A stretch of DNA of 63,690 bases, counting the filler, from Lenisia limosa (lineage: Eukaryota > Protista > Breviatea): the NCBI GenBank assembly GCA_001655205.1. It is 19 parts of 19 records of this genome, joined end to end, with 100 filler letters (N's around TTAATTAATTAA, not from the genome) between each part and the next. Parts side by side here need not be neighbours in the genome. Positions count along the whole stretch, not along the records: positions 4,808 to 8,425 come from LPNZ01006731.1; positions 8,526 to 18,029 come from LPNZ01004919.1; positions 18,130 to 19,370 come from LPNZ01003022.1; positions 19,471 to 25,314 come from LPNZ01005609.1; positions 25,415 to 29,809 come from LPNZ01008024.1; positions 29,910 to 32,487 come from LPNZ01000568.1; positions 32,588 to 36,157 come from LPNZ01011003.1; positions 36,258 to 39,727 come from LPNZ01002002.1; 11 more parts are not named here. One strand, 5' to 3'. The notes beneath the pieces are model-generated. The model was given only the letters and a program-made list of their open reading frames with translations, made no database searches and was not told the DNA's origin. Numbering within the stretch: the stretch's first letter is position 1; each line of letters starts with the position of its first letter. Positions 5,487-62,477 of this stretch are shown piece by piece. The position numbers and the translations under genes were made by a program.

Positions 5487-8338
5487 CAAGCCACAGATGA
5501 CGCATTCGGCTCTGTGTAGAGCGGCTTCTTCGTTTCCAGGTCGTACACAGTGCAATTGTTGTCCTCGTCCACTACCGCCAATTTACGACGACTACGGGCG
5601 TAAGAAAGATGAACTTTTTTTTGTGTAAAGCTAGAGGCTTTAGGTGTATGTGTGAAAAGTGAGTATGGCCCAAGTTTCAATTAGGGCTTCAATTCGGTTC
5701 GAAAAACCCCAGTAAAACATCGATTGTTTTCGAGGATTTATTGAGAAATTCCTTTTTTTTTGAACCGAAGTGAAACCATTGTTTCAATGCAAAGAATCTA
5801 CATCCTCCCTAGGGCTTCACTTCGGTTAAAAAAAAAAGAGACTGAATTTCTCGATAAATCCTCAACTATCGATATTTTCCGAACTGAAGTGAAGCCTTGA
5901 TCCTACCCCCCCCCCCCNNNNNNNNNNNNNNNNNNNNNNNNNNNNNNNNNNNNNNNNNNNNNNNNNNNNNNNNNNNNNNNNNNNNNNNNNNNNNNNNNNN
6001 NAAATGAGGGTGATCGGGAAGGCGTTATCAATGTAGACGGACATGACGTCACCGCTTCGGAGGCCGACAAGCAACCCCTCGCGGCCGGGCGGGCCTAATG
6101 ATCATCATTTGAATGATAAAATTGCCTTTAGAAAAAGGTGCGAAAGAGATAAATATGGCGTGATTCACGTTCAATATGACGCGCAAAACAGACTAGTGTG
6201 CTTCCGATATCCGAGGCAATTTTCCCATTTGAAAACCTGTTTTAGACATTATCCCCCACTCACCACCAACAACCTTGATGTAGCGAATAAGCGATTGTAA
6301 CATCCATTCACGCGCCAATGTCCCATCAAATGTGTAGAGCTGAAGACGTTTTTCCTGGGGGTGGGGGAGGGGAGTTAAATTGGAAAAATGTGAGACAATA
6401 AGCCCTTGTTGGCTGACAACATACGGGACGAAAGCAATAAAACAAACAAAGCTACCCTCACCTGGCACAATATGATGTGTTCGCTAGTGACAACAAGCAG
6501 GTTGCAGTCTAAGGCCTCTTCTACCGCACCGCATTGCACGTATTTGATGTCTGGTCAGAGGGTAAGAAAAAGAAGAAGAAGAGGAAGAAGAAGAGAGCAA
6601 CACCATTAACAAAAAAAAAAGAAGAAGATACTCACCACCAACCATTTGGGTCAGACGAGGTGGCCTCATATAACACCACTCTATCCTGGAGTTGGGCAGC
6701 GAGACGGTTCTTGTAGATGGCGATTTTGCGGACATATGATTGGCACTGAATGGGTGAGCGAAAAAAATAAAAGAGGTTTGATATTTTGTTCGATGGTGGC
6801 CAAATATATCCGGAATAGAATATTTATAGCAATGAGAAATAAATCAACAAAGTTGCATCTGACCGAAGCCATCCACATCATCACGCTTATTCTTGACCGA
6901 TTTGCTGTGCGATTTCTCAAAAAAAATCGGTCAAGACTTAACCTAGTCACTGTATGTATCCCCCCCCCCCNNNNNNNNNNNNNNNNNNNNNNNNNNNNNN
7001 NNNNNNNNNNNNNNNNNNNNNNNNNNNNNNNNNNNNNNNNNNNNNNNNAACGATAATGTCCGTCATGAAGTCCCTGTAGGCATAGCGATCCTGAGGGGAG
7101 GGGGTGAAATTGAAAAATTAATGAAATATAAAACAAAAATCAAATCAACTCTGGGAGGGGTAATACGTAATTTATGAAACAAAAAGTCCAAAATTAACTG
7201 TTAGTTGACACTATTATATTGTATATAATGTGTAAAAAAACACACTCATGAACATTAACATATCGCAATAAACATAAGTATTACATATATTGATAACATA
7301 AGAACATATACCCATGAATATATAAATAAAAAAATCCAAATGTAATCCACCCACTTGGAACAAGCCATGCACGGTTGAGAACATTAGCTGGTAGAGCACA
7401 ATAGAGCCGTCATTACAGCCGACAGCGACATAGTTCGACTTCGGCCTTGCCCGACAAGCCCAAATCCAGTCGTCTCTTTGGGCAATGGTTGTGAGTTCGA
7501 TTCCATCACGTGTCCATAGGGTGCACTGGCAACATTATGATAAATGAATGAAATTTCGCAATCATTCGCCTTACAACTCTGCACACAGCTTTCTGCGTGC
7601 CTCCCCAGCATATTATTTCACAATAATAATTAAAAAAAATGCTTGAAATAGGTTTCATAAAACTAACCCTCCTAACTACAAAACAAAAAAAACCCCGTTA
7701 ATTCAAGATATCAGATCCTGTAGTCTCTCTTTATCACTTTGTCACTTTCAGAAAAGCCCCCACCTTTCTGTCTGACCCTGACATGATCATATATTCGCCA
7801 TTGCTGAAGTGCGACACACAGCATGGGTCGTAGCCAAGGGACTTTTCTTTGCCCTGGGAAGTGTGATTATAATAATAGAGTACAAAGAAAAATAATAGCA
7901 ACAACAATTTGATCAAGAAAGAGACTTTTCTTTGCCTTAAGAAAGTACACAGTTGTGCAATGAGAACTAAAAAACAAGGATGTATCTGGTCAAGAGACTT
8001 TTCTTTGTATTGGGAAGGGTAAACAATATGATATGGTGAATTAGAAAAGAGACTTTTCTTTACCCCCAAAAGATTGAAATCATATGTTAAAATTATTGCT
8101 TTACCCCCCAAAAAAAAAACCAGGGAATGTCAACTATTGAAAGCAGGGCTTATCTTAAAATATCTATTTTCGAGGATTTTTCGAACCGAAGAAGAGATAA
8201 TCCCCCCACGATAGTTCTACCAGAAAGTTGGAAGAAGGCCAGCTTCTGACTCCAATCCGTGACCGCTAAAACGTCTCCATCTTCCCGGTTGGGGTTCCAT
8301 GAGAGCGACCAGACTGGGGCGGTTCGCTTGATTCTGAG
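5487..8338 (-). CDS. IFT122: Intraflagellar transport protein 122 (WD-repeat region, partial, about 9 exons)
   Basis: Exons 8210-8338 ([43 protein letters not shown]), 7764-7853 ([30 protein letters not shown]), 7355-7525 (..[25 protein letters not shown]), then [110 protein letters not shown] and [35 protein letters not shown]. These are colinear with IFT122 as I recall it. Confidence 0.95.
5810..5899. mobile_element. Family A hAT-type MITE
   Basis: TIR TAGGGCTTCACTTCGG..CTGAAGTGAAGCCTTG; flanks atcctccc/atcctacc (7/8 TSD). Confidence 0.8.
6355..6461 (-). repeat. Family D intron (complete 107-nt IFT122 intron made mostly of the shared block)
   Basis: GTGAGGGTAGCTTTGTTTGTTTTATTG..GTTGTCAGCCAACAAGGGCTTATTGTCTCACATTTTTCCAATTTAACTCCCC..CCAG. 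Confidence 0.75.
6888..6954. mobile_element. Family B Tc1/mariner-like hairpin MITE, abutting a family C copy
   Basis: TCTTGACCGATTT..AAATCGGTCAAGACTTA..GTCACTGTA. Confidence 0.7.
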
Positions 8339-8525
8339 CTGGGGGAGTGAGGGAAAAAAGTTCTCGTTTAATTTTTGTTGGAAAGGAAATACGAGTTGAA
8401 TTGAAAACTAAAGAGAAGATTAAATNNNNNNNNNNNNNNNNNNNNNNNNNNNNNNNNNNNNNNNNNNNNTTAATTAATTAANNNNNNNNNNNNNNNNNNN
8501 NNNNNNNNNNNNNNNNNNNNNNNNN

Positions 8526-11500
8526 CAGTCAGCCTAGCCGCCGCATCGAAGGTGCCTGCACTCTCAAGACGGCCCGCTGACTCCCTCACTGCCGATTCGT
8601 ACCTGGGGGAGGATATATAAGGTTATATACTAGTACAATCATATATATAAGATATATAGGGAGAGGGGGTTTAAGGGTGTATTATAGTATTATATGTGCA
8701 TACATATTATGGTTGATTACGGTATATGAGATAACGAATACTTTTTAAACCAAATAACATCGAGAATCAACTCTGTTGGTACAGCATTTATTATCCACAC
8801 AAGGGTTGAAAACAAAAGAAGCAAAGCTCAGATCAGTATTTATGGTTATGAAAGAGATATCAAATTGGGTTTGTTGGGGGAGTACATGAGCATATATTAT
8901 GTTATATGAGCGGATCCCCCCCCCCCCCNNNNNNNNNNNNNNNNNNNNNNNNNNNNNNNNNNNNNNNNNNNNNNNNNNNNNNNNNNNNNNNNNNNNNNNN
9001 NNNNNNNNNNNNNNNNNNNNNNNNCCCCCATTAATTGATACATCTAATATTCCTGTCCTTTAAATAAACTTCCACCAACACTTCCCGTAGTCCAATAAAA
9101 GGACCGAATCCCTCGATAAACCCTCGATAAATATCGATATTTAAAGGGTATTAGGGAAGTCCTAACTGCCACCCCCAACCTAGCAGTTTCAAGCATGGTC
9201 CTGAACATCCATCTGTGGGTGCTGAGGTCCTCTCCTCTGCTGCCCTCAACAATTCGGTTTACAGCAGCTGTGGCGGTAAGGGGATTGGAAAATTTATGTA
9301 TGAAACAAAAAATAAAAAAAAGCCCACGACACACGAGGGTTGAATACAACAAAAAAACAAAGCCCAGCCAGTCGCTTCAGCAGCACCGCATCCCATCACT
9401 CCTCAGCGAATAATTGAAGATTCAAAAACAACAACAACAACAAAGATACCAACTCTGTTGGCATGGCATTTGAGAACCACAGGGGATTAAACACAAAAAC
9501 AAACTAGGACAGTCAAAGGCACGTATCAGTATGCAGTAGGAGATGGAGAAGAAAGAGAGTAATCATATGCATTGTAGAGATGAAAAATAAAACAAGTTTG
9601 TACTGTATCTGAAGCCTTCCACACCATCACGTTTAGATGAGAAACCGGATTATAGTATCTGAGAGTTATTAAGACAGCCCCCCCCCCTCTCACCGGAAAG
9701 TTGTACAGAACCAATCATGCGTCTCAGTACATTGCCTGCCAAGGGGCCTAGTTCGTCCAAAACTCGACGGTAGTACTCTTTTCAAGTTAAATAGTAGGGC
9801 AAATTTCGATAGGAGTGTTACAAAGTGAAGCTTTCCGACCATGAACGCAGATAGCAATAATTAGAGGAACATATTTTGTATTATGGAGGGGGATTGGGGG
9901 GGGGGGGGAANNNNNNNNNNNNNNNNNNNNNNNNNNNNNNNNNNNNNNNNNNNNNNNNNNNNNNNNNNNNNNNNNNNNNNNNNNNNNNNNNNNNNNNTTA
10001 GATTTTGGATCAATAAAGGTGTTGAATTATTTTGTATTGTGTAACCAAGAAAACCTTCTCAAAACCCCAATAATTCCGGACGCGGATGGCCGTCACCCTA
10101 TATGATATCGATAAAGGTCCTGGATACCTATTTTGTATTAGCCTTGGGCTGTAGCTAGGGCTTCAGTTGGGTTCGAAAAAAAGACTGAAAATTTCGATAA
10201 ATACTCAAAAACTATCGATAATTTACCAGTATTTTTCGAACTGAAATGAAGCCCTAGGCGTAGCTGACCAATGAAACCAAAGCCAATAGCCACTCGCATT
10301 ATGATATCAGTAGCCCTCTGTCCCACTTTCGTCTAGTGTGTGCTTGAGCGAAGAGGCCTTGTTAAGCGCCTGGCGAACTGCTCTGCGACTACAGCGTCAA
10401 GGGGGGGGGGGGGNNNNNNNNNNNNNNNNNNNNNNNNNNNNNNNNNNNNNNNNNNNNNNNNNNNNNNNNNNNNNNNNNNNNNNNNNNNNNNNNNNNNNGG
10501 AGGGAGGGGAGTAAGTGCAGAGCTTCCCTTCGGTCCCATAAAAAAAGACTAAATTCTCGATACTCATAACCATAATTAACACCCAATGCACACATCAGAC
10601 TATGATAGCTCTTTTCCCGCCAATAATTTTCCCTTACACCCCAACCTCCAACCTTGCAATAATAAGGTCCAGCACCCGGAACCAAAGGTCTCTATCGTCT
10701 TCGTGTTTCTAATCAAGTCATTCGGAAGGAATCGGAAATGATAGAAATGATCGAAATAAAAAAGAGGTGTCTGCCAAAGCTGTCCATTCCAATCATTTGC
10801 CAGCTGATATTGACAATAATTCACTCAATCACCATAAAAATTCGAAAGCACAGCTAGGATTAGATTCATGAAATGGAATAAATACACGACGGAAAGCTAG
10901 AAAAGGTATGATGATCATGCGATTGTACCACACTGGTATTATGAACTTTTGCAATTATTGGAGTGAAGACATTCTAAACACTTCCAAAATGGGCTAGTAT
11001 TGATGAAGTTGGCCTTAAATCAAGTGATCAATTGTCACGCATATCAACATCAAAATGCCCCATCCCCCCAGCGAACCACGCGTCGATGTGCCAATGAAAT
11101 TGCATGATCGAGCATTGTCTCCAGTGTTTTGAACGCATTCTCAAACTAAACTATTAGGAAGGGGAAAACGTCAAAACTACCAAAGCAACGTAGGCTCTTT
11201 GATGCTTTTTTCAAATGAGCTAATATCACATGCAATATTATATACATGCTATATGCATATACTATAATATTATATTATAAAGAGTATATATCAGAGTATA
11301 TATATCTCATATAGTATACTATGCAGAAATATACGTTGTAAAAAGGTTGTATTATGCTGAAGCCGTCCATACCCGACAGTAAATAGAATGTACAACCTCA
11401 CCTGTTCGTCATTGAGTGCCTCAAATGAATAGTTCTCCTGAAGAGTCACGTCACTGATGCGGTCTTGAATTGCCTAATAAGGTAAGTAAGGTGCCTAATA

Positions 11501-14500
11501 AGGGAAGCCGTTTGCTAATAATGTACAGTGAGGGATAAGTCTTGACCGATTTTCTTTGGGAAATCAAATAACAAATTGGTCAAGACTTATCCTGGTCACG
11601 GTATGTATTTTAATAATATGTCCCTTCGACCCTCTTTTTCTAGAGCTTCTCTGTATTATCTTGCTCATTACCATCGTCACGCTGTAGCCGCGGAGACGCT
11701 TCAACCTGCCCCGATAACTCAGCCATGAGCTGCACCAGCAATATGAGACAGATGTGCTCGGGTTGCCAGCACACTGGCGTTATCCCCACCCATAGCCAGC
11801 CGTGAGAGGGGGATCCATTATTATATCTAGGGCTTGGCTTCGGTTTGAAAAAAGACTGAATTTCCCGAAAAATCTTCGAAAACTATCAATAATTAACCGG
11901 TATTTTTCGAACCGAAGGAAAGCCCTAATTATATCAATTATTTCAATAAGTCATTTACTGCACTTTGGGGGAGTCTTTTGCTGTTATCACTTCCCTATCA
12001 TTGTTTCCATAAGTAGTCTGATATGATAGAAATTGCCTTATTTGGACAAATGATGGTTGAGAAATTGCCTTATTTGGATAATATACCTTGGAGGCATCGG
12101 TGAGATCGGAGCTGCTACCCTTGACAAGAACGGTGCGCTTGCGTCTGAGAAGTCAGCAATGTTGTTTATGGTTTAAGCTGCGGAGTAGGTGGTAATATTT
12201 ATGATGTACTAATATAATAATGGGGTTTCTTGTTCTCAAAACAACTGGTTTGTTTTGTACGATTCCCCCCTGGATCAGAAAATTCGGAAAATAACAACAA
12301 ATTCATCAAATCATTCAATATTATTATCATCCAAATAATAATATACAAAAAAAAAAAAGATTTTCCAAAAATATCTTCAAATAACCAACCGGTCAGTTCT
12401 GCTCTGTGCTGCTTCTTGGGCAAAGACCTGGGAATTGGCTTGGTTAACCGAGGCGAGAAGCTCCTCTTCGGATAGGTCGGAGACAGGGGGTATGTAGCCG
12501 ACAGTGGGGGTGCTCGGAATACGGCCTAAATACCCAGTTCAGTTCAGTCCAGCTCATTTCATTTCAAAATCGCAACCTCTCAAAATTGAAAGCAATTGAA
12601 TACCCCCCTCACCTGAGAGAATGGACGGCGCGTACGGGACGGCAGGGCAAATATCGCCCAACTAAATATGTCAAAAAATGTCGATACCGGAAGTATTTGN
12701 NNNNNNNNNNNNNNNNNNNNNNNNNNNNNNNNNNNNNNNNNNNNNNNNNNNNNNNNNNNNNNNNNNNNNNNNNNNNNNNNNNNNNNNNNNNNNNNNNNNN
12801 NNNNNNNNNNNNNNNNNNNNNNNNNNNNNNNNNNNNNNNNNNNNNNNNNNNNNNNNNNNNNNNNNNNNNNNNNNNNNNNNNNNNNNNNNNNNNNNNNNNN
12901 NNNNNNNNNNNNNNNNNNNNNNNNNNNNNNNNNNNNNNNNNNNNNNNNNNNNNNNNNNNNNNNNNNNNNNNNNGATAACAAATCAAACAAAGCCCAGGTC
13001 AGCCATCACTCCAGGGTATGGAGTGATGGGTTGGGTGATGATGAAAAATAAGATTATGGGGGTATTTTTGGCCACCATTACACAGCAAAAATGCCAAAAA
13101 CACAAAAGCAACATCAAAGGCTTAAACTCAACCCCCAGTAATATACTATGTATATAAAATAAAAAACCCACCCGTACCCCCCTGTTGCCCACCCGGAATG
13201 TTGTGTCCCTCGCAGATGGCAAGGGTTTCGGTAACGGGTGTGTTGACAAGTTTAATGAAGGGAAGAACCTGCGTTGAAGTTATGTCGAAAGAGATTTGTC
13301 GATATAACAAGTATGATAGAAAATATATCTATATATCATATGTAGATACTACTTTATGGTAGCATTTTTTGCAAGGTGGTAAGATTCAAGAGTTTTGATC
13401 GATGAAGATAAATCGAGGGATTTGCCTTGAATTTATTCAAGAGTTTTGCTCAGTGGCTGCTACCTTACCGCTCACTATCATTGCCTAAGTTGAACCCTCC
13501 AACCTAGGCATCCAATGCTTACTCAAATTTATTCCTCCTTGTCATGCATATGCATGCCGATATATAGTACGATATTATATGTATGATATCCTGTATAGGT
13601 AATACCCCCCACGAGTCCAGGCTCATGTACGGCTGCCAGTTCGATGTACTTCATGTGATACTCTTCGGGAAGTTGCTTCTATATATGGTAAAGTGCTTCT
13701 TTTATGGTAATAAGCCTATATGATGATAAATGAAGATATATATTATATCATATGGTAATGGAGGTATTTTCGGTCAACATTTCAGAATTACGTAAATTCA
13801 CACAATATCTTTGAAAAACAAACAAGAGATAGTAAACAAACAAATACATAAGGTAAAAATAAAAAACACGTTAAACATGTAAAAACAAGTAAACAGTTCA
13901 AACGAAGCCTACATTTTCCTCGCCAGTTGATGCGGCGATGTGGCAAGCTTTGAAGAAGGACAGCAGTGTGGTAGGGTGGGCCGTGAGGGAGGATACAACC
14001 TGATGGTGGTGGTGATGATTGTGATGATAATGATGGTGATGATGATGATGTTGTTTCACAAATTTCCAAATCTACCCCCTTCTCCTACCTGATCTAAAGA
14101 CGTGCCCAAAACAGTCCTCACTAAACTGACAGTCTACAGGGTGAGAAAACAGAGGGACATTTTGTTCTAGTAATACTATGGAATGCTGACATATTCACAA
14201 TAACTGATGGATGTGGGTTTCCCAAAAATTACATTACTTTGTGTTTAGGAATTCCTTACGGTCCGAAAAAGATCATTAAAATATCGAATTTATCGAGAAA
14301 AGTCTTGTTAGGGACCGTAGGGAAGCCCTATTTAATCAAATGTTTAACTTGAGCAAACAAATTTCATGGGATTCCCATATGGGAATTCCAACGTTTTCAC
14401 AAGAATCCCAAGTCGATGCGCTGTAGTGTTATGCACGCCTACCTGGCTTGGGTTGATACTAACCAGCTTCTCAAGATGCATAAGAACAGCGCGTGAAATC

Positions 14501-17500
14501 TGAAGAGGTCAGTCAGAGCTCGAAATGGTACATATCAAAACATGTTTCTGATGCCCTAAGTTGTTGGTACCCTCACCTGTGCTCTCATGTTGGATATATC
14601 CTCAGGAGTGGTGGTTTCGGGGGTAAGGTGGGGAGGATGGGGGACCTGAAATAAGTAAGAGGAGGCTGTTATGGCCACATTGAAGCATCTTGCTCTCCAA
14701 AAAGACCAGTAAAATATCAATATTTATTAGGGTTCCGTGCAATTAGTTGAAAAATAAATTGCTGAATTTGATGTAAGACCTATTATCATGGGAACTACAT
14801 TTGACACTTTTAATTTCAACTTTGGTAATTGCTTCAAAACATTAATTGCACGGAGCCCTCCAATTTATCAAGAATTTGAGTGTAGGAAATCCCAAAAATC
14901 CTGATCAAACAAGCCAACATTTGCCAGGGCAGAGATAAAGGTAAACACTCTGTTGTCATTGTTGGATGGGACATTGAGATGAGCGGTCAACGCTGAAGGG
15001 GGANNNNNNNNNNNNNNNNNNNNNNNNNNNNNNNNNNNNNNNNNNNNNNNNNNNNNNNNNNNNNNNNNNNNNNNNNNNNNNNNNNNNNNNNNNNNNNNNN
15101 NNNNNNNNNNNNNNNNNNNNNNNNNNNNTTGATAACAACAAACCAAACAAATCCTAGCCCCTTTTTCTTCCTTTTTTTTTCGAAAAAAAACAAAACAAAA
15201 AATTTATGCTCTACATCTCCGCCCACCTTCAGCATAGTTCCCATTGAGCGAATGGAGGGATTCGAGGGCCTTGAAGAATCCGGCCTTATTTGCCAGGTCT
15301 AAGAGGGTGTCGTTGCTGGCGGGGGGCGGGGGCGGAGTAACATTGGAAAATTTATGAAACAAAATCCCAAAATCAACTCTNNNNNNNNNNNNNNNNNNNN
15401 NNNNNNNNNNNNNNNNNNNNNNNNNNNNNNNNNNNNNNNNNNNNNNNNNNNNNNNNNNNNNNNNNNNNNNNNNNNNNNNNNNNNNNNNNNNNNNNNNNNN
15501 NNNNNNNNNNNNNNNNNNNNNNNNNNNGCCGTTTGACGGGTTCCTCTTTTCCGTTGTTAATGTCTTGGTTGAACTGAAGTGTCAGCGGAGGGGACTAGGT
15601 GGGGGGAGCAAAATTGGAAAAATTATGAAACAAAAAAAAACCCTGTTGACGCTCCCACATTATAGACATAATAGACATTGGAGACAGTATTGACATTATA
15701 ATGTACATTAGAGACATTAGAGACATACGAGACATTATCGACATTATCGACAAATAGACATTATCGACATTATCGACAAATAGACATTATAGACAAATAG
15801 ACATTATAGACAAATAGACAGTATAGACAAATAGACATTATAGACAAAGAGACATTATAGACAAATAGACATTATAGACAAATACATTAGATATATATAT
15901 ATATTATAGCAATGAGAAAATAATAATAAGGATGTATCTGGCAGAAGCCGTCCACACCATCACGCCCCTGCATATAACCCAGGTAGGCCCTCTTAAATCC
16001 GTCGTATGCCACAGATTCAGGAGGCGCCAGTAAAACCATTATTAGGTACGATATATACCCCCCACATTAGCCATCCTATATGCCCCCCCCACATTAGCCA
16101 TCCTAGTGAGAAGGGGAAGAACGTCACCACTCCATGATCCGTCAACATAGTGTTCACTCGTCTGAATGTCCAGAAGGGTGCGCTGGGGGGTGGGGGTGGT
16201 AAAATTGGAAATTTATGAAACAAAAAAAAAACAAAAATCAACTCTGTTCGCTGACAACACAACACACAAAGGTTGATAANNNNNNNNNNNNNNNNNNNNN
16301 NNNNNNNNNNNNNNNNNNNNNNNNNNNNNNNNNNNNNNNNNNNNNNNNNNNNNNNNNNNNNNNNNNNNNNNNNNNNNNNNNNNNNNNNNNNNNNNAAATG
16401 ATAAAAAGAGTCTGAATCGTTTCAGTAGGAAATAGTTGATTTAGTCAATCAAAGTGACGGTACTTTTGAACGTCTGTCTATAAATGGTCCAAATAGAAGG
16501 ATGACGCAATTTACCTGAGAATTACCTACCAATTTTGGCTCAATTTTGATCTCGTCTGCGGTTTGAAGAAGCGCGTCAATGCAGTGCTAATTGGTCAAAG
16601 TTTATTGTTTTGCAGTAAAGTCTCTATTGAAACTTGGATCATAGAGTCCAACAGTTGAACTGAACAAAGAAAAACCCACAGAAAACGAAGTTGACCGATA
16701 CTCCGCAATAATATAGAGTGGCCGCATACCAATATATCCTTAGGTCCCAAAGGGTTGCTTCGCTCCCATGGGCCATTATTTACCAGCAAATAATATGGTG
16801 TTGTGTACGTGCCCACTCTATGTTATTCTCCGAAGCACCATATGTCACATCCTACGGAATATTCACTATGCATGCGTAACTGTTGAATATGTGTTGTTAT
16901 TGATACAGCATAAAAATAAGTCTTTATCCTTTCAGTTTGATGTCCATATTATATTATATAGTACATATAATAATCATATGATAACTATCACATCATTAAT
17001 ATCTCCTTGTACTACAGATGTAATTTTGCACAAGAAGATTCAAAAACACCAATATTCAATTTCAAATTTTTTGAAACGCAAACGGCTTTCCACCATCATT
17101 TGGGTTAACCGTACCCCCAGTGGTTATGAACGATGGTTACCACTATCTCAGGTAAAATTACGACTCCCTGCAATTAATTTTTGAGGAAATTAATTGACAC
17201 AATTTGCAAATAAAGTGTCTGAAATGAAGTTCCCAAGACAATACGTCTCCCGTCAAATTCGGCAATTAATTCAATTAATTGCACGGAGCTCAAAATTATG
17301 TAATATATTCATATCATACCTGGCAGTTCACCTCGGCGTGGTACACAATTGCCGAGTTCAGGCCCCCAATCAGCGCCACTATAGCAGACTCGGGATCACA
17401 GGAGATCTGAGGGGGGGGGGGGNNNNNNNNNNNNNNNNNNNNNNNNNNNNNNNNNNNNNNNNNNNNNNNNNNNNNNNNNNNNNNNNNNNNNATCACAATC

Positions 17501-17811
17501 ACAAACCGAACAATCTATAAAAATGACAATTTTGATAAACAAAAAAGCCCAGTGGGCTAAAAGGTTGAAAACCACACAGAAAAAAAAGGGGGAGAGGGGC
17601 GAAGAATGAAAACTTTATGTAAGACAATGATGAATCAACTCCGTGGGTTAAAAAATCGAAATAAATAGTACACACGTCTAGTAGATTTAGAACTCGACTT
17701 CCTGTGACAACTTTCGGAATCTACTGTCAGGTTTCAAATGAATCTCAAGTTAACAAGCCGCTTACCAGGGCAGCGAGGTGACCGTACGTTGCGTTAGATG
17801 GAGATGGCGGC
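8526..17811 (-). CDS. One or more multi-exon helical (ARM/HEAT-like?) hypothetical proteins, partial
   Basis: Many AG/GT-bounded minus exons, e.g. ISCDPESAIVALIGGLNSAIVYHAEVNCQ (~17330-17416), HCIDALLQTADEIKIEPKL, NDTLLDLANKAGFFKALESLHSLNGNYAE, ISRAVLMHLEKLVSINPSQ, AIQDRISDVTLQENYSFEALNDEQ, AVNRIVEGSRGEDLSTHRWMFRTMLETAR and YESAVRESAGRLESAGTFDAAARLT. Family not recognised. Confidence 0.5.
9268..9520 (-). repeat. Family D block (two tandem copies) at an intron 3' end
   Basis: GGATGCGGTGCTGCTGAAGCGACTGGCTGGGCTTTGTTT..TCAACCCTCGTGTG..TTTGTTTCATACATAAATTTTCCAAT..CACAG. Confidence 0.75.
10156..10256. mobile_element. Family A hAT-type MITE
   Basis: TAGGGCTTCA..TGAAGCCCTA; flanks gctgtagc/ggcgtagc. 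Confidence 0.85.
11524..11603. mobile_element. Family B Tc1/mariner-like hairpin MITE
   Basis: TA-CAGTG..GATAAGTCTTGACCGATTTT..AAATTGGTCAAGACTTATCC..CACGG-TA. Confidence 0.82.
11828..11927. mobile_element. Family A hAT-type MITE (100 bp)
   Basis: TIRs with a perfect 8-bp TSD, ATTATATC. Confidence 0.92.
14728..14860. mobile_element. Family E MITE (TIR TAGGGTTCCGTGCAATTA..TAATTGCACGGAGCCCT) inserted in a family A relic
   Basis: ~20 bp TIR; flanks atatttat/caatttat. Related copies at ~17165-17291, ~33181 and ~63160-63240. Confidence 0.75.
15662..15888. repeat. Intronic minisatellite, ~17-bp unit AGACATTAT(A/C)GACAAAT
   Basis: Tandem repeat read directly. Confidence 0.9.
16183..16278 (-). repeat. 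Family D block at an intron 3' end
   Basis: TCAACCTTTGTGTG..GTTGTCAGCGAACAGAGTTGATTTTTG..TTTGTTTCATAAATTTCCAATTTTACCACCCCC..CCAG. Similar blocks at ~7091, 8740, 12975, 15305, 15595, 35207 and 58901. Confidence 0.8.
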
Positions 17812-19370: not shown

Positions 19371-19517
19371 NNNNNNNNNNNNNNNNNNNNNNNNNNNNNN
19401 NNNNNNNNNNNNNNTTAATTAATTAANNNNNNNNNNNNNNNNNNNNNNNNNNNNNNNNNNNNNNNNNNNNGGGGAGGAGGGTGAAACGAAGTAATTTTCG
19501 ATTAATAATATTGGCGT

Positions 19518-20200
19518 AAAGCCATGAAGGAGGCCATTGAGCACCATGTTGACACAGGAAGATGCAGTGCGGGTGTGAGAGCCCAAGCCCTTTATACCCA
19601 CATTTTGACCGGCCCGTGGACTGCGTGGAGAGGGGTATAATATGGTATACTAATGGTGGTATAATTTAGGAAACATGTGGGTGAGCAATATTGTATCATA
19701 TATTTAGAAACCGGAGGGGTTTCTGAAATGCAACTATTATATTTCATCCTATTCTTCCCATTTTCAACTCATTTGTCTCTCAACTGACATTTCAGCCCTG
19801 AAGCGCCAGTAGTGGAGGTGGAAGAAACCGACCAGGGCGATTTTGTAGAGCTGAAGCAAGTTGTATAAAATCAAAATAGTTTTTATGTGTTCTGCGTGAG
19901 ACTTATTTTTTGACTGTTTCTTTCTGTACAGTAATTGATGGACCATTCTTATCATTTTTAAAGGTTCTAATGTACATCAGGAAAATAGAAATACCATATA
20001 AATCCATGCTGTAAGTGAAATGATGATAATGGGACTAGGGTCAAATATATCACATCACCAAATTCAAACTAATGTCCGGGAAAGGTACCATACCGCTTAC
20101 GTTGGAGGAAAAGCTCAGAAGTCCAAGGCGCAGCTATCTTCCAGCCATCGTGTTAATTTACGCTATGGAACTGATAGGATCAGCCTGGGATAGTAATTTT
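19518..20200 (+). CDS. Hypothetical multi-exon protein
   Basis: Segments AMKEAIEHHVDTGRCSAGVRAQALYTHILTGPW and PEAPVVEVEETDQGDFVELKQV. Confidence 0.3.
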
Positions 20201-30104: not shown

Positions 30105-30472
30105 ATTCCTACATCATATTTTGGAGGTCCAATTTGGCTGTCGCTTCCACCTCGGTGAGGAATTCGCGGGAAAATCGGAGTTCGGGGAGTTTATGAGCGA
30201 CAGTCACCGCATGGGTGATCTGACGATCAAGCTGGTCAACCTAAACTTGGGTAAAACAAAGGAAATTTGGACGAATATTGGAGTAAAGGTACTAACCACG
30301 AACTGATCAATCCGAATGAATGTATCACTATATTATATTATATCATATATAGATGGTATGTCTTACATGTATTACCCCCCATACCATTTCCCTGGCCATA
30401 TCGACCTCACCGCGTTCATACAGGTCCAAAATAACGTTGATTGCTGGCAGAAAGTTACAACACCTGGGATGT
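30105..30472 (-). CDS. Two exons of an unknown protein
   Basis: CCNFLPAINVILDLYERGEVDMAREM and VDQLDRQITHAVTVAHKLPELRFSREFLTEVEATAKLDLQNMM with canonical boundaries. Confidence 0.45.
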
Positions 30473-45190: not shown

Positions 45191-45490
45191 NNNNNNNNNN
45201 NNNNNNNNNNNNNNNNNNNNNNNNNNNNNNNNNNTTAATTAATTAANNNNNNNNNNNNNNNNNNNNNNNNNNNNNNNNNNNNNNNNNNNNCAGTCTTAGA
45301 AAATTGAATTAACGACAATAATTCGAATTAACGACATAGTTTAGGACCTCGAGCATGCATTTGATATTTTATCCCCAAGAACAGGAAATGGGTATGCCCC
45401 CATTGATTTATTTTGTGTCTGGGTTTTAAGATTTACAGTATTCCTCAGATTCCATCACCCCAAAAAAGCATCCTATAATACTCTCCCCAG

Positions 45491-46461
45491 GAAGGCATAT
45501 AAGCGGAATGCTGATCCCCCGCGGGGTGACCCTCATCGTTGGCGGTGGCTTCCACGGCAAAAGTACTCTACTGGAGGCTCTGCAGGTGAGCTGTCAGTAT
45601 GGCTTAAATCTACAGCACCATATGCTATTGCCAATTTGCTGTGGTATCCAAAACAATGTGGAGGAGGGGTGTCTTAGTTCAGAGGATTTCCCATATCTAC
45701 GTATTGTGTTCAATTGCGATTATGTTCTTTGATGCATTAGAACCCTATTGTTCTCAGTTGAAGTTATGTCAATTGTCCTTTAATTTTGAAGGAAATCAAA
45801 AACCAAAACTCACAAGGGCACAATACAAAAACACAACAAAGTCAGTGAAGTATTTTGTGGCAAAAACCAGCACACCTCAAAGATATTAGCAAAATTTTGG
45901 CACATTTTGGAGGTTATATAGTATGTATTTTGATACACGTTATTAGAATGGGTCGGTTGCATCTCGCGCATAAACATAGTCTTCACATTTATGTTTGTGC
46001 TTTTGTTTGATTTGTACCTTACACCACTATTTTTTTATCAAGAATTGCTCTCACCCCCCAGGTTGGAGTGTACAACCACATTCCAGGCGACGGAAGGGAG
46101 TTTGTTGTGACTGACCCGACTGCTATGAAAGTGGGCTGAAATAAGGCCGTCTGATGCACCGCCAATATAGACCCGCAATAATGCCATGATGTGCCGCTAA
46201 CAATTACTCTACAGTGACTGGAATAAGTCTTGACCGATTTTCAAGAAAATTGGTCAAGACTTATCCCGGTCACTGTATGCTGGTAACACCCAACCCTCAC
46301 TTAACATTTTGATATCCTATGTTTTATGTTGCTCTATTGGGTGAATCAACTCCACTGCAAGCGTCTTTGAAATTCCCCCATAACGACCCCCTAGATTAGG
46401 GCCGAGGATGGACGGTCGGTCTTTGATGCCAATTTGTCCCCCTTCATCAACAACTTACCGG
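45491..46461 (+). CDS. Predicted ATPase of the ABC class (PF09818-like), three internal exons
   Basis: Exons 45491-45585 (GRHISGMLIPRGVTLIVGGGFHGKSTLLEALQ, Walker A), 46062-46130 (VGVYNHIPGDGREFVVTDPTAMK) and 46395-46461 (IRAEDGRSVFDANLSPFINNLP). GVYNHIPGDGRE and IRAEDGR..ISPFINNLP are hallmark motifs of this family. Confidence 0.9.
46210..46277. mobile_element. Family B Tc1/mariner-like hairpin MITE
   Basis: TA-CAGTGACTGGAATAAGTCTTGACCGATTTTC / GAAAATTGGTCAAGACTTATCCCGGTCACTG-TA, a near-perfect palindrome. Confidence 0.88.
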
Positions 46462-46810
46462 GTTAGTTCCAGCATTCCTGTACAAAATTCTCATCGTGAT
46501 ATGATGATACTTGACTCTCCTCAACGGAGTTGATTTTGTGCTTTTTTTTTTTCCTCATAAACTCTCTCTTGCTCGCTTACGTCTTCTTTTATTCCNNNNN
46601 NNNNNNNNNNNNNNNNNNNNNNNNNNNNNNNNNNNNNNNTTAATTAATTAANNNNNNNNNNNNNNNNNNNNNNNNNNNNNNNNNNNNNNNNNNNNTGATC
46701 GTGTTGATAGGGGATGTGGTCCGTAAGCTGTACATCCGCAGCATCCCACCAGGCTGAACCGCTGCTACCACTGACGCTGAAAGGTTACAATTATGATAAT
46801 GGGTATTTAG

Positions 46811-53649: not shown

Positions 53650-55523
53650 ATGTCAAAAACTAGCAAACCTGCCCCTGGAATGGAGCTTGCAGGTAATCAC
53701 CGGGTTTAACGATTGTATACATAGATAAATCATTTTAATTGATCAGCTTCTTTTAATCTGTTACCACTACAGCATACTCATGCTCTTTCGGTTTTTATTT
53801 TTTTGATTTCATGTTTCAGTCTATTCCAAGACTGGAGGGCTGCAATTCATGAAGAAGTTCCCCAACTTAGAATTCGTACCTACGCCTTTGTGGGTGGTTG
53901 TGTTAAGCCTTGTAAATTGTGGACATTTCCCCTTTGTTCCTGCTGTTTTTCCTCATATTGGAGGGATGACTTTGAGAAGCCCGACCGAGGCCTTATGTAT
54001 TCTGCTTGTGGACGGTTGGTTGGGAAGGTGTGGATGAGAGGATGGGGTTTGAGGTTTGGCGGGTGACAGCTTTAAAGGTTAATACTTAGAGTGGATGACA
54101 CAGTAAGTAGGTAGCTCTGACTCTCTAGCATTGCATGTGCCTGCAACCAAACCACCATCAAGATTATGTCCTGTTTCGGCGAGAGGGCTGGCGAAGTCAT
54201 TCAAACCATCACTATCGATAGCATTTCGTGAGTGGGTTTTGATCTCTTTTTTTTGAGCAAATGTCATCGTGGGTCGTATGAAAATTTCATTAACTGATAC
54301 TCAATTAGGTTTTTAATTGCTATTTCATTAACTGATACTCAATTGGGTTTTTTAATGCTATTTTTGGTATTATAATAAAGGATCAGACGGCCTATCGTTT
54401 CACCTTCTCCCCAGATCATTCACTGTGTCCCCCAAGGGCGGGTATGTGGCAACTTTCACCAGGCGGCTTAAGGGAGAAACCGGACNNNNNNNNNNNNNNN
54501 NNNNNNNNNNNNNNNNNNNNNNNNNNNNNNNNNNNNNNNNNNNNNNNNNNNNNNNNNNNNNNNNNNNNNNNNNNNATATAAACTCAATATTATATTTCAA
54601 AACTTAGCAAGCCTTCGTATCTTCAAGGTTGCTGATGGAGAACAGATTGGACAGTTCAACTATAACAACTACCAAGACAGCTGGTATGGTACAAAACTTC
54701 CATTTTCTTCGTGTTTCCTTCAATTGTCTAATGGACAGGGAATGCATGCAGTGGGAGCCTTCAGAGAAATTCCTTTGCCTCCGTACAAATAATGGCATTA
54801 GCGTCTTTGATGGTAAACGGGAAGGGGATGATAGAGGATTTTGGTTGGGGGGGGGGGGNNNNNNNNNNNNNNNNNNNNNNNNNNNNNNNNNNNNNNNNNN
54901 NNNNNNNNNNNNNNNNNNNNNNNNNNNNNNNNNNNNNNNNNNNCTGTATCACGTTTCCCCAGCCGCTTCCCCCCGCAAGATCCTCTGGAAGGTCACCGTG
55001 AAGGATATTAAGAAGTTGGTCCTTGATATGTCACATCCTTCATCCTGCCTTTCTATTACCCCTCTTTTTTTTACTAATCTCAGATTTTCTGTCCATGAAG
55101 ATTGCAATGGCCCCTGTTTTGCAGTTATGATCAAGGGTGGAGGTAAGACGAAGACGTTTCCCCAAGTCCCTGTGGTTTTTGATATTGTATTATATCAAAT
55201 ACTATTACATATTTCTTGTTGCTATCTGTCCTTATCAAATTAGCAAACTGCATGGCTCTCGGCAAAATGTTCAGCTCAGCCTCTTCGAAGATCAGTAACC
55301 CCATTTGCCAGCGCTCTCTCTTCCAAGTACGTTCGGGAGACGCAGTGTAACTGTCAGCAAAGACTGTTTTGACTTGCCTAGTGTGAGCGAGTGAAGTTTG
55401 TTTGGAGCAGTGACGGCTCGGAGTGTCTTGTCCACACGGCCACGGACTTGAAAGATGGCTCTTACTATGGCGACCAGAAGCTCTTCCATATGGCCCCCGG
55501 CGCCGGATGTGTCGTGTACATCG
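53650..55523 (+). CDS. EIF2A: Eukaryotic translation initiation factor 2A (partial)
   Basis: MSKTSKPAPGMELA|VYSKTGGLQFMKKFPNLE, SFTVSPKGGYVATF, ECMQWEPSEKFLCLRTNNGISVFD, ISNPICQRSLFQ and CERVKFVWSSDGSECLVHTATDLKDGSYYGDQKLFHM. The last matches eIF2A KADKV.M.WN....VLV..STDVD.TG.SYYGEQ.L. Confidence 0.85.
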
Positions 55524-55777: not shown

Positions 55778-56595
55778 GACAACCTCGAAACACCCCCAGC
55801 CATCTGATGCGGCATGGACCTCCCGTCCCGCCCCCGGTACAGAGGGATACCAGACAACGTCTGTTGGCGTTGACGTTCTTTTGGCGTCTCGTGCGGCCGC
55901 GTTGAATGGTTGGTAAATGATTGGGTGAATTTATATTATACTGTAATCTAATATCTCTGGTGACGGTGTGGACGGCCTCGGCCAGATACAACCTTGTTTT
56001 AATAAATTATACGATATTATGATATACAGGTAGTATATAGTTGAGGGGTGAGTGGTGAAGGGCATCCTGAGCGCAGTTATTTGTTGTGGGGGAGAAGGTA
56101 ATTTTGTTTTAAAAAAAATGGTTCGTGATAAGTAATTTACACCAATATTCTCCATCGAAATTTCCTTCATTTTGCTCAACGTTTGGGTGATCGAGCGGTG
56201 GTGAGGGGGACTCAAAGGCTGGCTTGGGCTTGTTTCCCCTCCCCTCTCCCCGTTTCAACCCTTCTGTGTTTGGGAACTGCTTCAGCTTGCTGAATTGATT
56301 TTTTTTTATTAATATTATTGTTTTGTTTGTGTCACAATTTTCCAATGTTTATCCCCCCCCCCCAAATCCCCCAAATTCTCGACGTGTTATCAACCGACAG
56401 AATTGATTTGGGCTTTTGTTTCATGAATTTTTCAATTTAACTCCGCCCCTCCCAGGCACAATGACGGACAAGGATATGAGAGACCTCCAAACGAACTTGG
56501 CAAGAATGGGCATTTTGGACCGAATGCGGGAGGAGAAGGACAAAACGAAGATGGCCGAGGATCTACTCGCTGCTACGGCCCCGGAAGGCGGATAT
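55778..56595 (+). CDS. Two exons of an unknown protein
   Basis: DLTTSKHPQPSDAAWTSRPAPGTEGYQTTSVGVDVLLASRAAALN and GTMTDKDMRDLQTNLARMGILDRMREEKDKTKMAEDLLAATAPEGGY. Confidence 0.5.
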
Positions 56596-56625
56596 GTGGG
56601 GAGGGGTGGTGTGGGGGTGATAATA

Positions 56626-56703
56626 GGTGACCTAGATAAGTCTTGACCGATTTTCCTAGAGAAATCACATAACAAATCGGTCAAGACTTATCCCGTCAGT
56701 GTA
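56626..56703. mobile_element. Family B hairpin MITE
   Basis: GATAAGTCTTGACCGATTT..AAATCGGTCAAGACTTATC. Confidence 0.8.
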
Positions 56704-56952: not shown

Positions 56953-57048
56953 CCCCGTCGATTACCCCCATCGATTACCCCCGTCGATTACCCCCGTTGA
57001 TTACCCCTATCGATTACCCCCGTCGATTACCCCCATCGATTACCCCCA
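56953..57048. repeat. Tandem repeat, unit ~CGATTACCCCC(A/G)T
   Basis: About 7-8 units. Confidence 0.9.
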
Positions 57049-57202
57049 TCTAAACCCCCCATACTGGGGAGGTACGAAATGATTGGGCGAATTAATATTA
57101 TTCTGTAATTCAATATCTCTGATAAGCGTGATGGCGTGGACGGCTTCCGCCAGATACAACCTTACTTTTTATTTTTTATTGCCACATCTAAACCTCCCAT
57201 AC

Positions 57203-58900
57203 CTGAGGACACACGGGCTGCGACAGGGAGGAATTCGGTCAGAGCAAGCCGCACGAACTTGTCACTCTTCTCCCTCAAGGCTAGCACTGAGCTGCAGAGG
57301 TCGCTCATATAGGGCTGCACAAATGATCCTGTAAGGGGGGGGGGGTGAAAAACTTTGGACTAATAACTAAGTCTATTGGCTAAACAATTGAAAATTACAA
57401 TAATATGAGGAGGGTTGTTCACATTCAAGAAGAACAACATGGCTGATAGATAGGCCTTCCCTGCAGTCCGAAAAAGACTGTTAGAACATCAATATTTATG
57501 GAGGATTTATCGAGTCTATCTTGAGAACATAGGGAAGCCCTACTGATAGACCTAGGCAGCACTATTAATTATTTGGCAAAATTTAAAATTGAGTCTGAAG
57601 TGGTGACCATGCAATATGCCTAGGGTTTCATCTTGTTTCAAAAAAGACCAGTAAAATGCTTCCATGACATATGGTCCTGATGTGTATTTGTTTCCTTATC
57701 TTGTGTTCAATACATTTTTTTTTAAAAAAAAAAATTATTATAAAGAAAATAATATATATGTACATGTATATATATAGAACACCAAAAAACACTTTCAAGC
57801 CCTTCACACCGCCATTGAGGACAAACGCGTGGACAGCGAGGATACTGCCATGCTGTTGGTCGGTACTAGAGATTTGCAGCATCTACAGGGTAGGGTGACG
57901 GGTGCATGCTGTGAACATGCGAAAAGACACAACCTTCTCTGAAGAGCTAAGAGCCCCCCTCTACTAATATTTGAAGTGCCTCTTAATTTATGATATTACG
58001 TTGTCTTTTTAGGCATACCTCTTAATTTATCATTTTACGTTGTCTTTTTAGGATTTAACAAAAATATACAACATCAAAAAAATGGTATTATTCCCCCCAC
58101 CTCCTGCAGCTGGTTGAGCACGGATTTGAGGAGACCAGCCTGGAGTTGGGGGCCTCTTGTGCTGATGAGACGAAGAGCACACCCAAGGGTCTTGCCGGCC
58201 TTGATGGTGAGTGAAAGTTAAATGTAGCAAGGCGGTTATCATAATGATTAGGTTGTAAGGCGGCTATCATTATGATTAGGTTAATGGTGTTTTAGATAAG
58301 ATAAACGGTGATTAGTTATTTATGTAGAAATTGTTATTTGAACAAGATAAACAACATTTTGTACAGCCACGAACAAGGACAGATATACAGCATCCCATCC
58401 CACCTCAATTCGGAGTCTGAGTTTGGAGTCGTGGAGGCCGCTGAAGGTGGCTCGGAGGAATACCTGATTGTAAAATGAGAAATGTGTACAGCTGGTCATG
58501 GAGAATATTGATTGGTTAATATTAGTGAAATCTACTATTTTTAAGATGAGGGATGCCTGGAAAAAAGTTATATCTGTTCCAAAGTACACATACCCATGAG
58601 CTGTCACCATGCCCCCACCTCCAAATGATCAGTGAACAAGGCGACAGGCGCGTTTCCAGCAAGTGATTGCAGCATTAGGCATGCTGAAATCCTGGAGAGA
58701 GTGACTTGAAGCGGATATAGAAAAACTACTGCTGTATCTTCTTTTCGTTTCAGTAAATTCGGAAAAAGCTGTTCTCTTACACGCTCCACCCACCGTCTGG
58801 AGTCGTTTTTGTCCTGCAGCCATTCGAGGCAATTGCGGATTTCGCGTTCGAGGAAATCCGAAGTTAGAAAGCCGCCCACTCGGGTCAGATCCGCCACAGC
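57203..58900 (-). CDS. TOR: Target of rapamycin kinase, N-terminal HEAT region (partial)
   Basis: AVADLTRVGGFLTSDFLEREIRNCLEWLQDKNDSRR, ISACLMLQSLAGNAPVALF, VFLRATFSGLHDSKLRLRIE, AGKTLGCALRLISTR and QQHGSILAVHAF. These are colinear with TOR EVKRALEWL...EGRRHAAVLVL.ELA..P..F...I..A.WDPK..IRE..A.AL..CL and IHGALL. Confidence 0.82.
57451..57542. mobile_element. Family A variant MITE
   Basis: Perfect TSD CTGATAGA. Confidence 0.9.
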
Positions 58901-58973
58901 CTGGGGTGGAGGGAGTAATATTGGAAAATTTATAAAACAAAAAGCTCAACAACTGGAAGGCCAGGAAAATACT

Positions 58974-59055
58974 TACAGTGACCAGGATAAGTCTTGACCG
59001 ATTTTCTATGTGAATTCCCAAGGAAAATAGGTCAAGACTTTTTCTGGTCACTGTA
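58974..59055. mobile_element. Family B Tc1/mariner-like hairpin MITE
   Basis: TA-CAGTGACCAGGATAAGTCTTGACC..GGTCAAGACTTTTTCTGGTCACTG-TA. Another copy at ~61313-61390. Confidence 0.88.
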
Positions 59056-59619
59056 TACATGTTGCTGTATGATATGATGATGAACATTAAGATCCTTTTG
59101 TTTCGACAATTTAGCATTTTATTTTTGTCACCAAAAAAACTTTTGTTTTAACTGCAGTTTTTAACCCTACATTCATCATAATCCCAAAAAAAGAAAAGTA
59201 CCTCCCCCCCAAGACNNNNNNNNNNNNNNNNNNNNNNNNNNNNNNNNNNNNNNNNNNNNTTAATTAATTAANNNNNNNNNNNNNNNNNNNNNNNNNNNNN
59301 NNNNNNNNNNNNNNNCCGCCGGATCTTTGTGATCCTTGTTTCAATAGAGACTTTGCTGCAATAAGGTGCTTTTGCAGCAAAAGTCATGAAACCAGGATCA
59401 TAAAGATCGGTGGAATGGGAGGAGAGGGGGACTCATTCATAATAACAGAAGAGGGCAGGAAGAGTAGGGGGTCCTTTCTTTTGTAATGCACACTATGGAC
59501 AATTGTAGTGTCAGATGAACTGTATAGTGTTATTTGAGAAACAATTGGGCACTTATGATCCTGTCATTACTTAACCATAACCATCATTAAAATAGTGCTG
59601 TTTTCAAAAATCTTAACCC

Positions 59620-60205: not shown

Positions 60206-60780
60206 TACTGATTGGATAATTCAACTATTTTCTGACTCTCCCCCCTGTTAACTGATAATCAATATACGTGATGTACGTAAGAGTATTATCTAGTACAGTA
60301 CTATAATCCAATATCTCTTATAAGCGTGATGGTGTTTAAACACACACACATACATATTTATCTACATAGCTATATATATTGTATATACTCAATACCATTC
60401 TCACTTCGGTTGTTATATCTTTTATGACAATTATTATCAGAGCCAACGTCATTCACAACAGAGTTGATTTTGTTGTTTTTTTCCATCAATTTTCCTGCTT
60501 CACCCCTGGATGCGGTGCTGCAGGAGCGTCTGGCCNNNNNNNNNNNNNNNNNNNNNNNNNNNNNNNNNNNNNNNNNNNNTTAATTAATTAANNNNNNNNN
60601 NNNNNNNNNNNNNNNNNNNNNNNNNNNNNNNNNNNACCCCCTCCACTTTTTGTATTCATTTTTTCATTTTCATTTAGTTTAATGTAATTATTTAGCTCTC
60701 CCTCCCCTCCTCATTTTTTGTTTTCATTTTCATTTTATTTATTTTTTTATTTATTTGATTTAATAATGTAGCTCACTCCA

Positions 60781-62050
60781 GTACGGCCTGAGGTTTTAAT
60801 TGTGGCAGCGCAGACCGAGGGCGTTTCGGAACAAAAGCTTGCCGAAGACTGGAACGCCGGGATTTTTAATGTGGGGGGGGGGGTTATGGATAGGGCTTCA
60901 CTTTGGTTCGGTAAAATATGGATAGTTTTTGAGGATTTATCGAGATATTCAGTCTTTTTTTGAACCGAAGTGAAGTCCTGGTGTTTAAACTGATTTATAA
61001 TATTGAGGGGGGAGGGCAATGTGGGTCCACATATTTATTGTAGAGCAATCAAAAGCAGTAATTACCCCTCCCCCAGTTTGTTTGGAGTTTTACATGAGGC
61101 AATTCGTGATTTATGTCAATATTCTTCATCGAAATTTTCTTTGTTTTACTCCCCTCCTAGCGTCCCACAGCCACCCTACGTATTCTACACCGAATGGACG
61201 TCGGCACTCATTCCGCTGTCCCGGACCCCCAGATTATGTATTACGCACAGGACCCGCAAACTGGCGAAATCAAGGGGCCACACCAGGGTGGGGGGTGCAG
61301 ATTAAGATATCATCAACCGGGATAAGTCTTGACCGATTTACTATGTGATTTCACAAGGAGAATAGGTTAAGACTTATTCTGGTAGTGATAGATTTACAAA
61401 TTTATTTTTTTACAGATTTAGGAAATTTATTTAGAGATGGTTTTTTCAGATAATTATATGATATTTATGGAGGGGGCCTCATTTCGGTTTGATAAGTTAC
61501 TAATTTTCTCGATAAATCCCCGAAAACAATAAAACAAAATAATTCTGGTCTTTTTTCGGAACGAAGAAAGCCCTAATAATATGATATTATTAGGAGGTGC
61601 AGATATTGTCTTGATGATCCAACATAGTTGATTTGGGCTTTTTTTATTCTTTTAATTGTCCAATTTTACCCCCCCCCCCCGATCTTTGACCATCCAGGTA
61701 TTGCCCAGGGCTCTGACGTTTTATCATGGGCTTGCTACAACTCCAAGAATGAGACAAAGGAGGTGGGAGTGATATTTTTGGTGTTTATATTAATTTTTCT
61801 GTTATTGTAATAAAATGAGTGGTGAGTCATGATTCCTTGTTTTTCTTAATATTACGCTGGGGGGCTGCAGAAGCAGCTGGCATGGGCTTTGTTTGTTTTA
61901 TTGTTTTTTGTGTGTTACTAGCCAACAGAGTTTTTTTGGGCTCTTTTTGTTTGTTTCATACATTTCAAATTTTACCCCCTTCAGGCGGCAGTAGTGTGGA
62001 AAAAGGCCGGGGTTACCCGGGTACCGAGTAAAAGCCGACTTCCCACCGCT
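60781..62050 (+). CDS. Hypothetical multi-exon protein
   Basis: VRPEVLIVAAQTEGVSEQKLAEDWNAGIFN, RPTATLRILHRMDVGTHSAVPDPQIMYYAQDPQTGEIKGPHQ, GIAQGSDVLSWACYNSKNETKE and AAVVWKKAGVTRVPSKSRLPTA. Confidence 0.5.
61850..61984 (+). repeat. Family D block at an intron 3' end (plus-strand gene)
   Basis: GCTGCAGAAGCAGCTGGCATGGGCTTTGTTTGTTTTATTG..TAGCCAACAGAGTTT..TTTGTTTCATACATTTCAAATTTTACCCCCTTCAG. Other plus copies at ~46524, 56200-56455, 60455, 61620 and 62185. Confidence 0.8.
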
Positions 62051-62477
62051 GTTGTGAGTGGCGGAATTGATGGAATGAGGGTTTCACTTCTGTTTGAAAA
62101 AAAGACTGAATTCGATTAATCCTCGAAAATTTTACTGGTCTTTTTCGAACGAAGTGAAGCCTTGGGGATATCGTAGTTGTACCCTTTCAGCCAACAAAGT
62201 TGTTTTTGGGCTTTTTATTTTCTCANNNNNNNNNNNNNNNNNNNNNNNNNNNNNNNNNNNNNNNNNNNNTTAATTAATTAANNNNNNNNNNNNNNNNNNN
62301 NNNNNNNNNNNNNNNNNNNNNNNNNAAAAAAAAAAAAAAAAAAAAAGGTAGTATCTGGCCGAAGCCGTTAACACCATCACGCTTATAAGATATATTGGAT
62401 AAAAATAATTCACCCAATCACATAAAAATAATACTAATAATAAGATGAAGAAGAAGAAGAAGAAGAAGAACAATAGG

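Follow-up and report, generated by a model that had tools for sequence, protein, structure and literature searches.

A dispersed intronic repeat with a C-rich tail at predicted intron 3' ends in Lenisia limosa

The DNA analysed here (hereafter the window) is a stretch of 63,690 nucleotides from the breviate Lenisia limosa (GCA_001655205.1), in which 19 scaffolds of 1.2-9.5 kb each are joined by N linkers, with 59,365 called bases, and our subject is family D, a dispersed intronic repeat, about 130 bases long, whose 3' tail is rich in C. Pfam matches identified IFT122 (a ciliary gene, 4808-8425), an ABC-type ATPase and eIF2A, while TOR was recognised by a PDB match (E 7.5e-5), so that the names IFT122 and TOR given in the original prediction were confirmed. 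The gene at 45291-46595, with several introns, belongs to PF09818 (ABC_ATPase P-loop family); the minus-strand gene at 8526-17810 has at least 20 exons, and none of nine open reading frame pieces from it matched a Pfam family. Exons came from a self-trained finder, whose splice models were partly seeded on D acceptors, and the resulting 58 intron entries were curated by hand; all splice sites are therefore predictions, with splicing inferred from reading frames and checked against homologues for IFT122 only. The host strand of IFT122, of TOR and of the genes at 8.5-17.8, 34.5, 45.3, 55.6 and 60.6 kb is clear from score margins, and the strand at 59.6-60.5 kb was assigned by eye.

Donors in this organism are G-rich (GTGGG in 23 of 45) and acceptors C-rich, the two being nearly reverse complements of each other. 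Pair-specific pairing of C tracts with G tracts was considered and rejected, both across exons (45 pairs, p 0.42) and across introns (31 pairs, with one dropped over a wrong coordinate, p 0.15). By eye, 14 of the 22 true assembly gaps adjoin long G or C runs, and seven D copies break off at a gap or scaffold end; the youngest D copies may therefore be those missing, a caveat that applies to every reading given below.

We found 24 copies or fragments of D in 59 kb, a few of them weak, and about one intron in four, in unrelated genes, has D at its predicted 3' end. The original prediction had described a homologous block at 11 intron ends. All-vs-all alignment of 49 acceptor-proximal windows, stripped of their last 22 nt, gave 30 edges among 1176 pairs at z>=5, and one component of 12 windows held all 11 of these loci (acceptors 6355, 7091, 9268, 15316, 15595, 16183, 34658 and 58901 on the minus strand; 56455, 61697 and 61984 on the plus strand) together with 8603, two more windows being joined only via a miniature inverted-repeat transposable element (MITE). 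The block is thus shared even when the C tract and AG are removed; the family lies where it had been placed, with one acceptor corrected from 15305 to 15316, and the MITEs reported within the same introns are present. Similarity also survived shuffling. Two core motifs were counted 10 and 9 times, where 100 shuffles predict 0.28 and 0.17, and in a leave-one-out hidden Markov model (HMM) without the C tract 14 of 19 copies exceeded 7.7 bits, the highest score among 20 shuffled windows. The copies not above that maximum were those at 6355 (0.1), 58901 (6.9), 61697 (7.3), 12978 (7.6) and 60508 (-0.8), of which 6355, 58901 and 61697 are still linked pairwise at z 6.7-10.6.

The proposed length of about 100-150 nt holds for the family, whereas most copies are its 3' half only. 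Similarly, the block is longer than a branch point plus pyrimidine tract as far as the 100 nt upstream are concerned, which are specific to the family, but its last ~20 bases (a branch-point-like YTNAY, the C tract and YAG) are the generic acceptor of the organism, found in 22 of 28 non-D acceptors. The copies are old, with a best pairwise identity of 83% and a median of 70% over 65 alignable pairs. No Rfam family matched D, and a rough alignment of 6 copies gave no conserved fold (0 consensus pairs). An Rfam family was rejected, the 11 weak microRNA-type matches being below gathering score and all on MITE-like hairpins. A gapped D motif had 0 matches in metagenome contigs and viral contigs, and the 28-base D head had 0 matches in prokaryote genomes.

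We then considered how the copies are placed with respect to splice sites. All 24 lie within predicted introns. As predicted earlier, they mostly run into the acceptor AG: of the 17 copies that could be placed, 12 have their end no more than 25 nt from a predicted acceptor, compared with 0/13, 0/5 and 0/10 for the repeat families A, B and C, a difference (Fisher p 2e-7 against the pooled 0/28) that is partly circular, the tail being part of the copy. Sense orientation, claimed for every placed copy, holds for 23 of 24. The single antisense copy (14049-14088, plus strand; z 6.7-9.1 to three copies) is a D 3' end whose C-rich tail lies exactly on a predicted donor and forms the G-rich donor of the minus-strand intron 14000-14088. 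The sense bias is not special to D, as family C, which is never at an acceptor, has 15 sense and 2 antisense copies with 3 unplaced (Fisher p 0.56); introns are T-rich on the sense strand, where AATAAA occurs 4 times against 18 on the antisense strand.

Among the copies that end in an acceptor, whose boundaries like all others were drawn by hand, D fills nearly the whole 107-nt IFT122 intron 6355-6461 (copy 6355-6452, minus; z 6.7 to 61984), and a 3' half ends in the IFT122 acceptor 7091 (7091-7153, minus; leave-one-out HMM and cluster). In the minus-strand gene at 8.5-17.8 kb there are a near full-length copy ending in acceptor 9268 with its head 290 nt inside the intron (9268-9403; HMM, cluster), a 3' half with its 5' part in a gap (15316-15380; HMM, cluster), an internally deleted copy (15595-15656; HMM, cluster) and another with its 5' part in a gap (16183-16279; 34.8 bits, cluster). 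Also on the minus strand, the copy at 34658-34762 (28.1 bits) follows an acceptor-like C-rich stretch and has its head 320 nt inside the intron, that at 35207-35238 is a tail with the remainder in a gap (motif match), and that at 58901-58960 is a tail ending in a TOR acceptor (z 7.8). On the plus strand, a 3' half ends in acceptor 56455 (56384-56455; HMM, cluster), a near full-length copy ends in acceptor 61984 (61856-61984; 49 bits, cluster), and a 3' half at 61612-61697 (z 10.6) is followed after its C run by 17 nt of non-D acceptor.

The remaining copies are internal, stacked or cut. Minus-strand examples are an upstream tandem 3' half ending in an acceptor-like CCCAG (7152-7212; HMM), a tailless internal copy that lies some 140 nt upstream from acceptor 8603 (8741-8845; 16.9 bits), a decayed upstream tandem copy (9430-9535; 9.1 bits), a head entering an assembly gap (12975-13013; 7.6 bits) and two weak tandem fragments inside an intron (17539-17656; 6.5 and 1.4 bits, under the shuffle maximum). 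The plus-strand ones are a fragment in an ABC-ATPase intron, truncated by the scaffold end (46521-46561; 12.4 bits, not a seed), a long internal copy ending in a C run without AG (56203-56363; HMM) to which 56384-56455 is tandem, an internal 3' half with a C run without AG (60456-60504; HMM, motif), directly followed by a head cut by the scaffold end (60506-60535; head model), and a 3' half also cut by a scaffold end (62183-62224; 13.1 bits).

Five tandem pairs were recognised (7153+7091, 9450+9268, the weak 17590+17540, 56230+56455 and 60456+60508). By eye, five of seven non-terminal tails lack an AG directly after the C run, and the tail at 61697 is succeeded by a distinct acceptor of 17 nt. 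The 16 nt preceding a copy contained at least six C in 8 of 21 cases, compared with 7.3% of intron windows (p 0.0002), and in four of these eight the stretch is the tail of another D copy. Like short interspersed nuclear elements (SINEs) and retroelements without long terminal repeats (non-LTR), D copies have their 3' end in common, are truncated to varying degrees at the 5' side and carry a simple tail, here C-rich like the generic acceptor. Self-BLAST and an inverted-repeat search gave no terminal inverted repeat (TIR) arms within D among the matches listed (the 25 longest pairs per region), the same searches having found arms for families A, B and F. A 6-7 nt repeat at 34658 was rejected as a target-site duplication (TSD), as it was within the null. 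One D copy has a perfect 11-bp hairpin (13003-13029) at its 5' junction, the kind of trace expected from templated fold-back synthesis.

As the original prediction derived these introns from a mobile intron-generating element, we asked whether D made them. The first 60 nt of 13 D-bearing introns gave one pair of 78 at z>=4, an AT-rich one, meaning that their 5' ends are unrelated; similarity reached both intron ends in only 1 of the 13 D-bearing introns with a known donor, and in six introns the D head lies 95-320 nt inside. None of the 60 donors tested reached 1 bit with a model of the internal head (null maximum 4.0), and by-eye matches of the head to donors at 58403 and 61763 were rejected as they did not score. 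An AG|G duplication was rejected as well, with G after AG in 7/12 D and 13/28 other acceptors, as were short terminal repeats of the form TG...CA, since the 8-mer at 13012, taken as a second "head", fits better as a CpG-decayed internal motif.

Intron positions in IFT122 allowed a comparison with homologues. The spliced piece has an open frame and can be aligned with homologues along 330 residues; best identities were 47-62% on one exon and 56% over the spliced region, its branch on the tree is long, and no close relative was found. The breaks used are those of gene-caller protein fragments from other genomes that end at an exon edge, an indirect kind of evidence. At the intron 6355-6461, 9 of the 35 homologue representatives reaching the site break off as CQ|V, as does P0001, missed by the pattern; such a break is how a phase-0 GT donor would read, and it falls at the codon boundary where the intron lies. 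The breaking homologues include P0023, closest to PDB 8bbe/8fgw, which we take to be human, and P0052, closest to 8bda, presumably Chlamydomonas. Judged from these fragment edges, the position is old, common to vertebrate-type and green-alga-type IFT122. Most other IFT122 intron positions, including the D-free ones tested, match no homologue-fragment break, which suggests that introns were gained in this lineage. Among 80 homologous IFT122 loci, nearly all intronless (13 candidates aligned), 5 have introns, none at 6355-6461 or 7091-7354. In this small sample, D is not tied to new intron positions. The expectation that D introns would occupy new positions is thus contradicted at 6355-6461, shared with distant homologues, and the other testable intron, 7091-7354, was unmatched among few fragments.

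Of the idea that these introns descend from an intron-generating element, the mobile or copied origin of D is supported, while the old position of one of the two testable introns and the antisense copy speak in part against the remainder. The introner origin of D is unproven, and contradicted for at least one intron (6355-6461); D is probably not a plain intron-making transposon.

The explanation that we favour, with even confidence, is that D is an old repeat, non-autonomous and either mobile or copied, that ends in a C-rich tail and lodged at the C/G tracts of splice sites in pre-existing introns and took over their 3' signals. It is built on the homology of the copies, their 3' anchoring, 5' truncation and tandem stacking, the unrelated intron 5' ends, one old position and one inverted copy at a donor. 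Upon insertion, the tail would pair with a C or G run of the host, through target-primed reverse transcription or templated break repair, both of which are general mechanisms. Copying would begin at the tail, so heads would often be lost, and the YTNAC and C run of the tail would then act as branch point and pyrimidine tract before the host AG. Later copies may have inserted into the tails of earlier ones, and an inverted insertion would land in a donor G run; selection against A-rich, AATAAA-bearing antisense strands may add to the sense bias. In a bolder version, to which we give a doubtful standing, D is a splice-site-homing element whose C-rich tail targets acceptor C runs (or, inverted, donor G runs), rewriting the signals of existing and even ancient introns genome-wide. 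As the two splice signals of the organism are near reverse complements, the orientation of such an element could decide whether a donor or an acceptor is created or founded anew.

Several points weigh against lodging in pre-existing introns. D fills the intron 6355-6461 except for 9 nt at the 5' side, so that the old interior would have to have been deleted or the intron gained in parallel, and such a gain is possible at a CAG|G site. The second IFT122 intron with D, 7091-7354, matched none of the few homologue fragments breaking nearby and may be new. No TSD was found above the cross-pair null (17 copies, all old), no autonomous partner was seen in the window, and a single copy is inverted. 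The window likewise holds none of the young near-identical copies with TIRs or TSDs at their junctions that the original prediction had proposed to look for (best identity 83%), hence the junctions are blurred; moreover, the D-bearing splice sites are predicted rather than RNA-derived and the copy boundaries were set by hand.

The alternative that survives best is a decayed introner, which made new introns in exons and also entered or merged with older ones, its head later buried by MITEs and local duplications; we consider it possible, at a tentative level. It would account for the sense ratio of 23:1, for the location of all 24 copies in predicted introns, for a tail giving branch point and C tract and for the nearly complete occupation of intron 6355-6461, but the sense bias is common to family C, the position of this sole whole-intron case is old, heads are absent from 60 donors and neither AG|G nor TSD signatures were found. 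Two donors do point this way, as 61763 has an 8-mer in common with the head at 9402 and one test among 52 (p 0.005) showed a resemblance between donor 61288 and the head at 61856; duplicated donors exist (16040-16110; 35098 and 34862), so donors can shift upstream, and the unmatched IFT122 positions would be lineage gains. In Micromonas, 32 introner remnants in conserved introns and merged or nested copies have been described (Verhelst et al. 2013, PMC3879977). Introners are required by definition to show similarity close to both of their splice boundaries, with elements that entered an existing intron secondarily left out (Gozashti et al. 2022, PMC9860276); with both-end similarity in 1 of 13 introns, D is not classed as an introner by this working definition.

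An untargeted entry, or ectopic gene conversion with local tandem duplication among C-rich intron ends, in which selection alone left D sense and acceptor-adjacent, appears improbable. The T-rich sense strand and the AATAAA imbalance agree with it, as do the frequent local tandem duplications in these introns and a small family E (5 copies) that also ends at acceptors, as drift among converted ends would give; yet harmless internal copies persist (8741, 56203), nearly all adjoining another 3'-end D, a clustering not seen for A, B and C. Finally, the alternative raised in the original prediction, an extended lineage-specific 3' splicing signal or a selected intronic RNA, is very unlikely despite the fixed orientation and register to the AG and terminal copies slightly nearer the model than internal ones (median 0.29 vs 0.20 bits per position, p 0.11), since D occurs in only 11 of 49 acceptors and as truncated, tandem, internal and inverted copies, without Rfam match or consensus fold, and donors are not of the U12 type when compared with the U12 consensus.

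Other repeats share these introns. Family C comprises 20 non-palindromic copies of ~105-125 nt (for example 57076-57186, 40965-41060, 35851-35953 and 55914-56003) and starts with a donor-like GTAAG; at 55909 it begins at the donor itself, and by eye many of the copies are placed towards the 5' side of their introns. The second short block, family E (19476-19519, 30248-30286, 40199-40237, 56137-56180 and 61111-61154), runs into acceptors in three of its five copies, one copy standing before a D copy. Three MITE families have TIRs: A (at least 20 copies; 10155-10257, 34862-34965), B (58966-59056, 46210-46279) and F (14730-14858, 17161-17291); A and B are flanked by TA and presumably Tc1/mariner-like. 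Local intron duplications are frequent (16040-16110; 35075-35098 with 34840-34862; 11470-11500; 23590-23680; 54290-54360; 57980-58050), some copying an exon end with its donor, or an acceptor with the exon start.

If lodging is true, a mobile element can turn over splice signals without intron gain, which could explain the unusual C-rich acceptors and G-rich donors of this lineage and would warn that common intron sequence does not prove intron birth. As introner surveys drop one-ended intron similarity as secondary insertion, their very design would overlook an element that replaces the 3' signals of every fourth intron. Should D be a decayed introner instead, it would add one more ordinary case to a class known from some 200 species.

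Waldo, Koshi, SART/TRAS and the self-nesting Zepp are target-specific non-LTR retroelements or SINEs whose tail matches a simple-repeat target. D resembles them in its common 3' end, variable 5' truncation, tandem self-insertion and target-set orientation, and differs in that no reverse transcriptase partner, TSD or RNA-derived head was found. In open-licence papers searched with narrow terms, we found no report of a C-run-tailed repeat homing to acceptors. Fungal introner-like elements and sister stwintrons share with D the lack of TSD and insertions touching the splice signals of another intron, but carry conserved hairpins or long terminal inverted repeats, while D is without consensus fold (PMC8469720; PMC3879977). 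Introners in general are like D non-autonomous, intron-sized and genic, may co-opt one host splice site and in many families lack TIRs or TSDs; D differs in being 3'-anchored only and 17-30% diverged (PMC9860276; PMC12130899). The Micromonas introners likewise show repeated intron sequence in unrelated genes and degenerate partial copies, nested or merged, in conserved introns; their remnants in older introns have lost their splice motifs, while D in an old intron supplies a predicted branch point and C tract, and no intact end-to-end family of D was seen in the window (PMC3879977). Such remnants and merged copies keep introner ancestry among the possible origins of D, which in its working is partly introner-like, mobile DNA supplying a splice signal.

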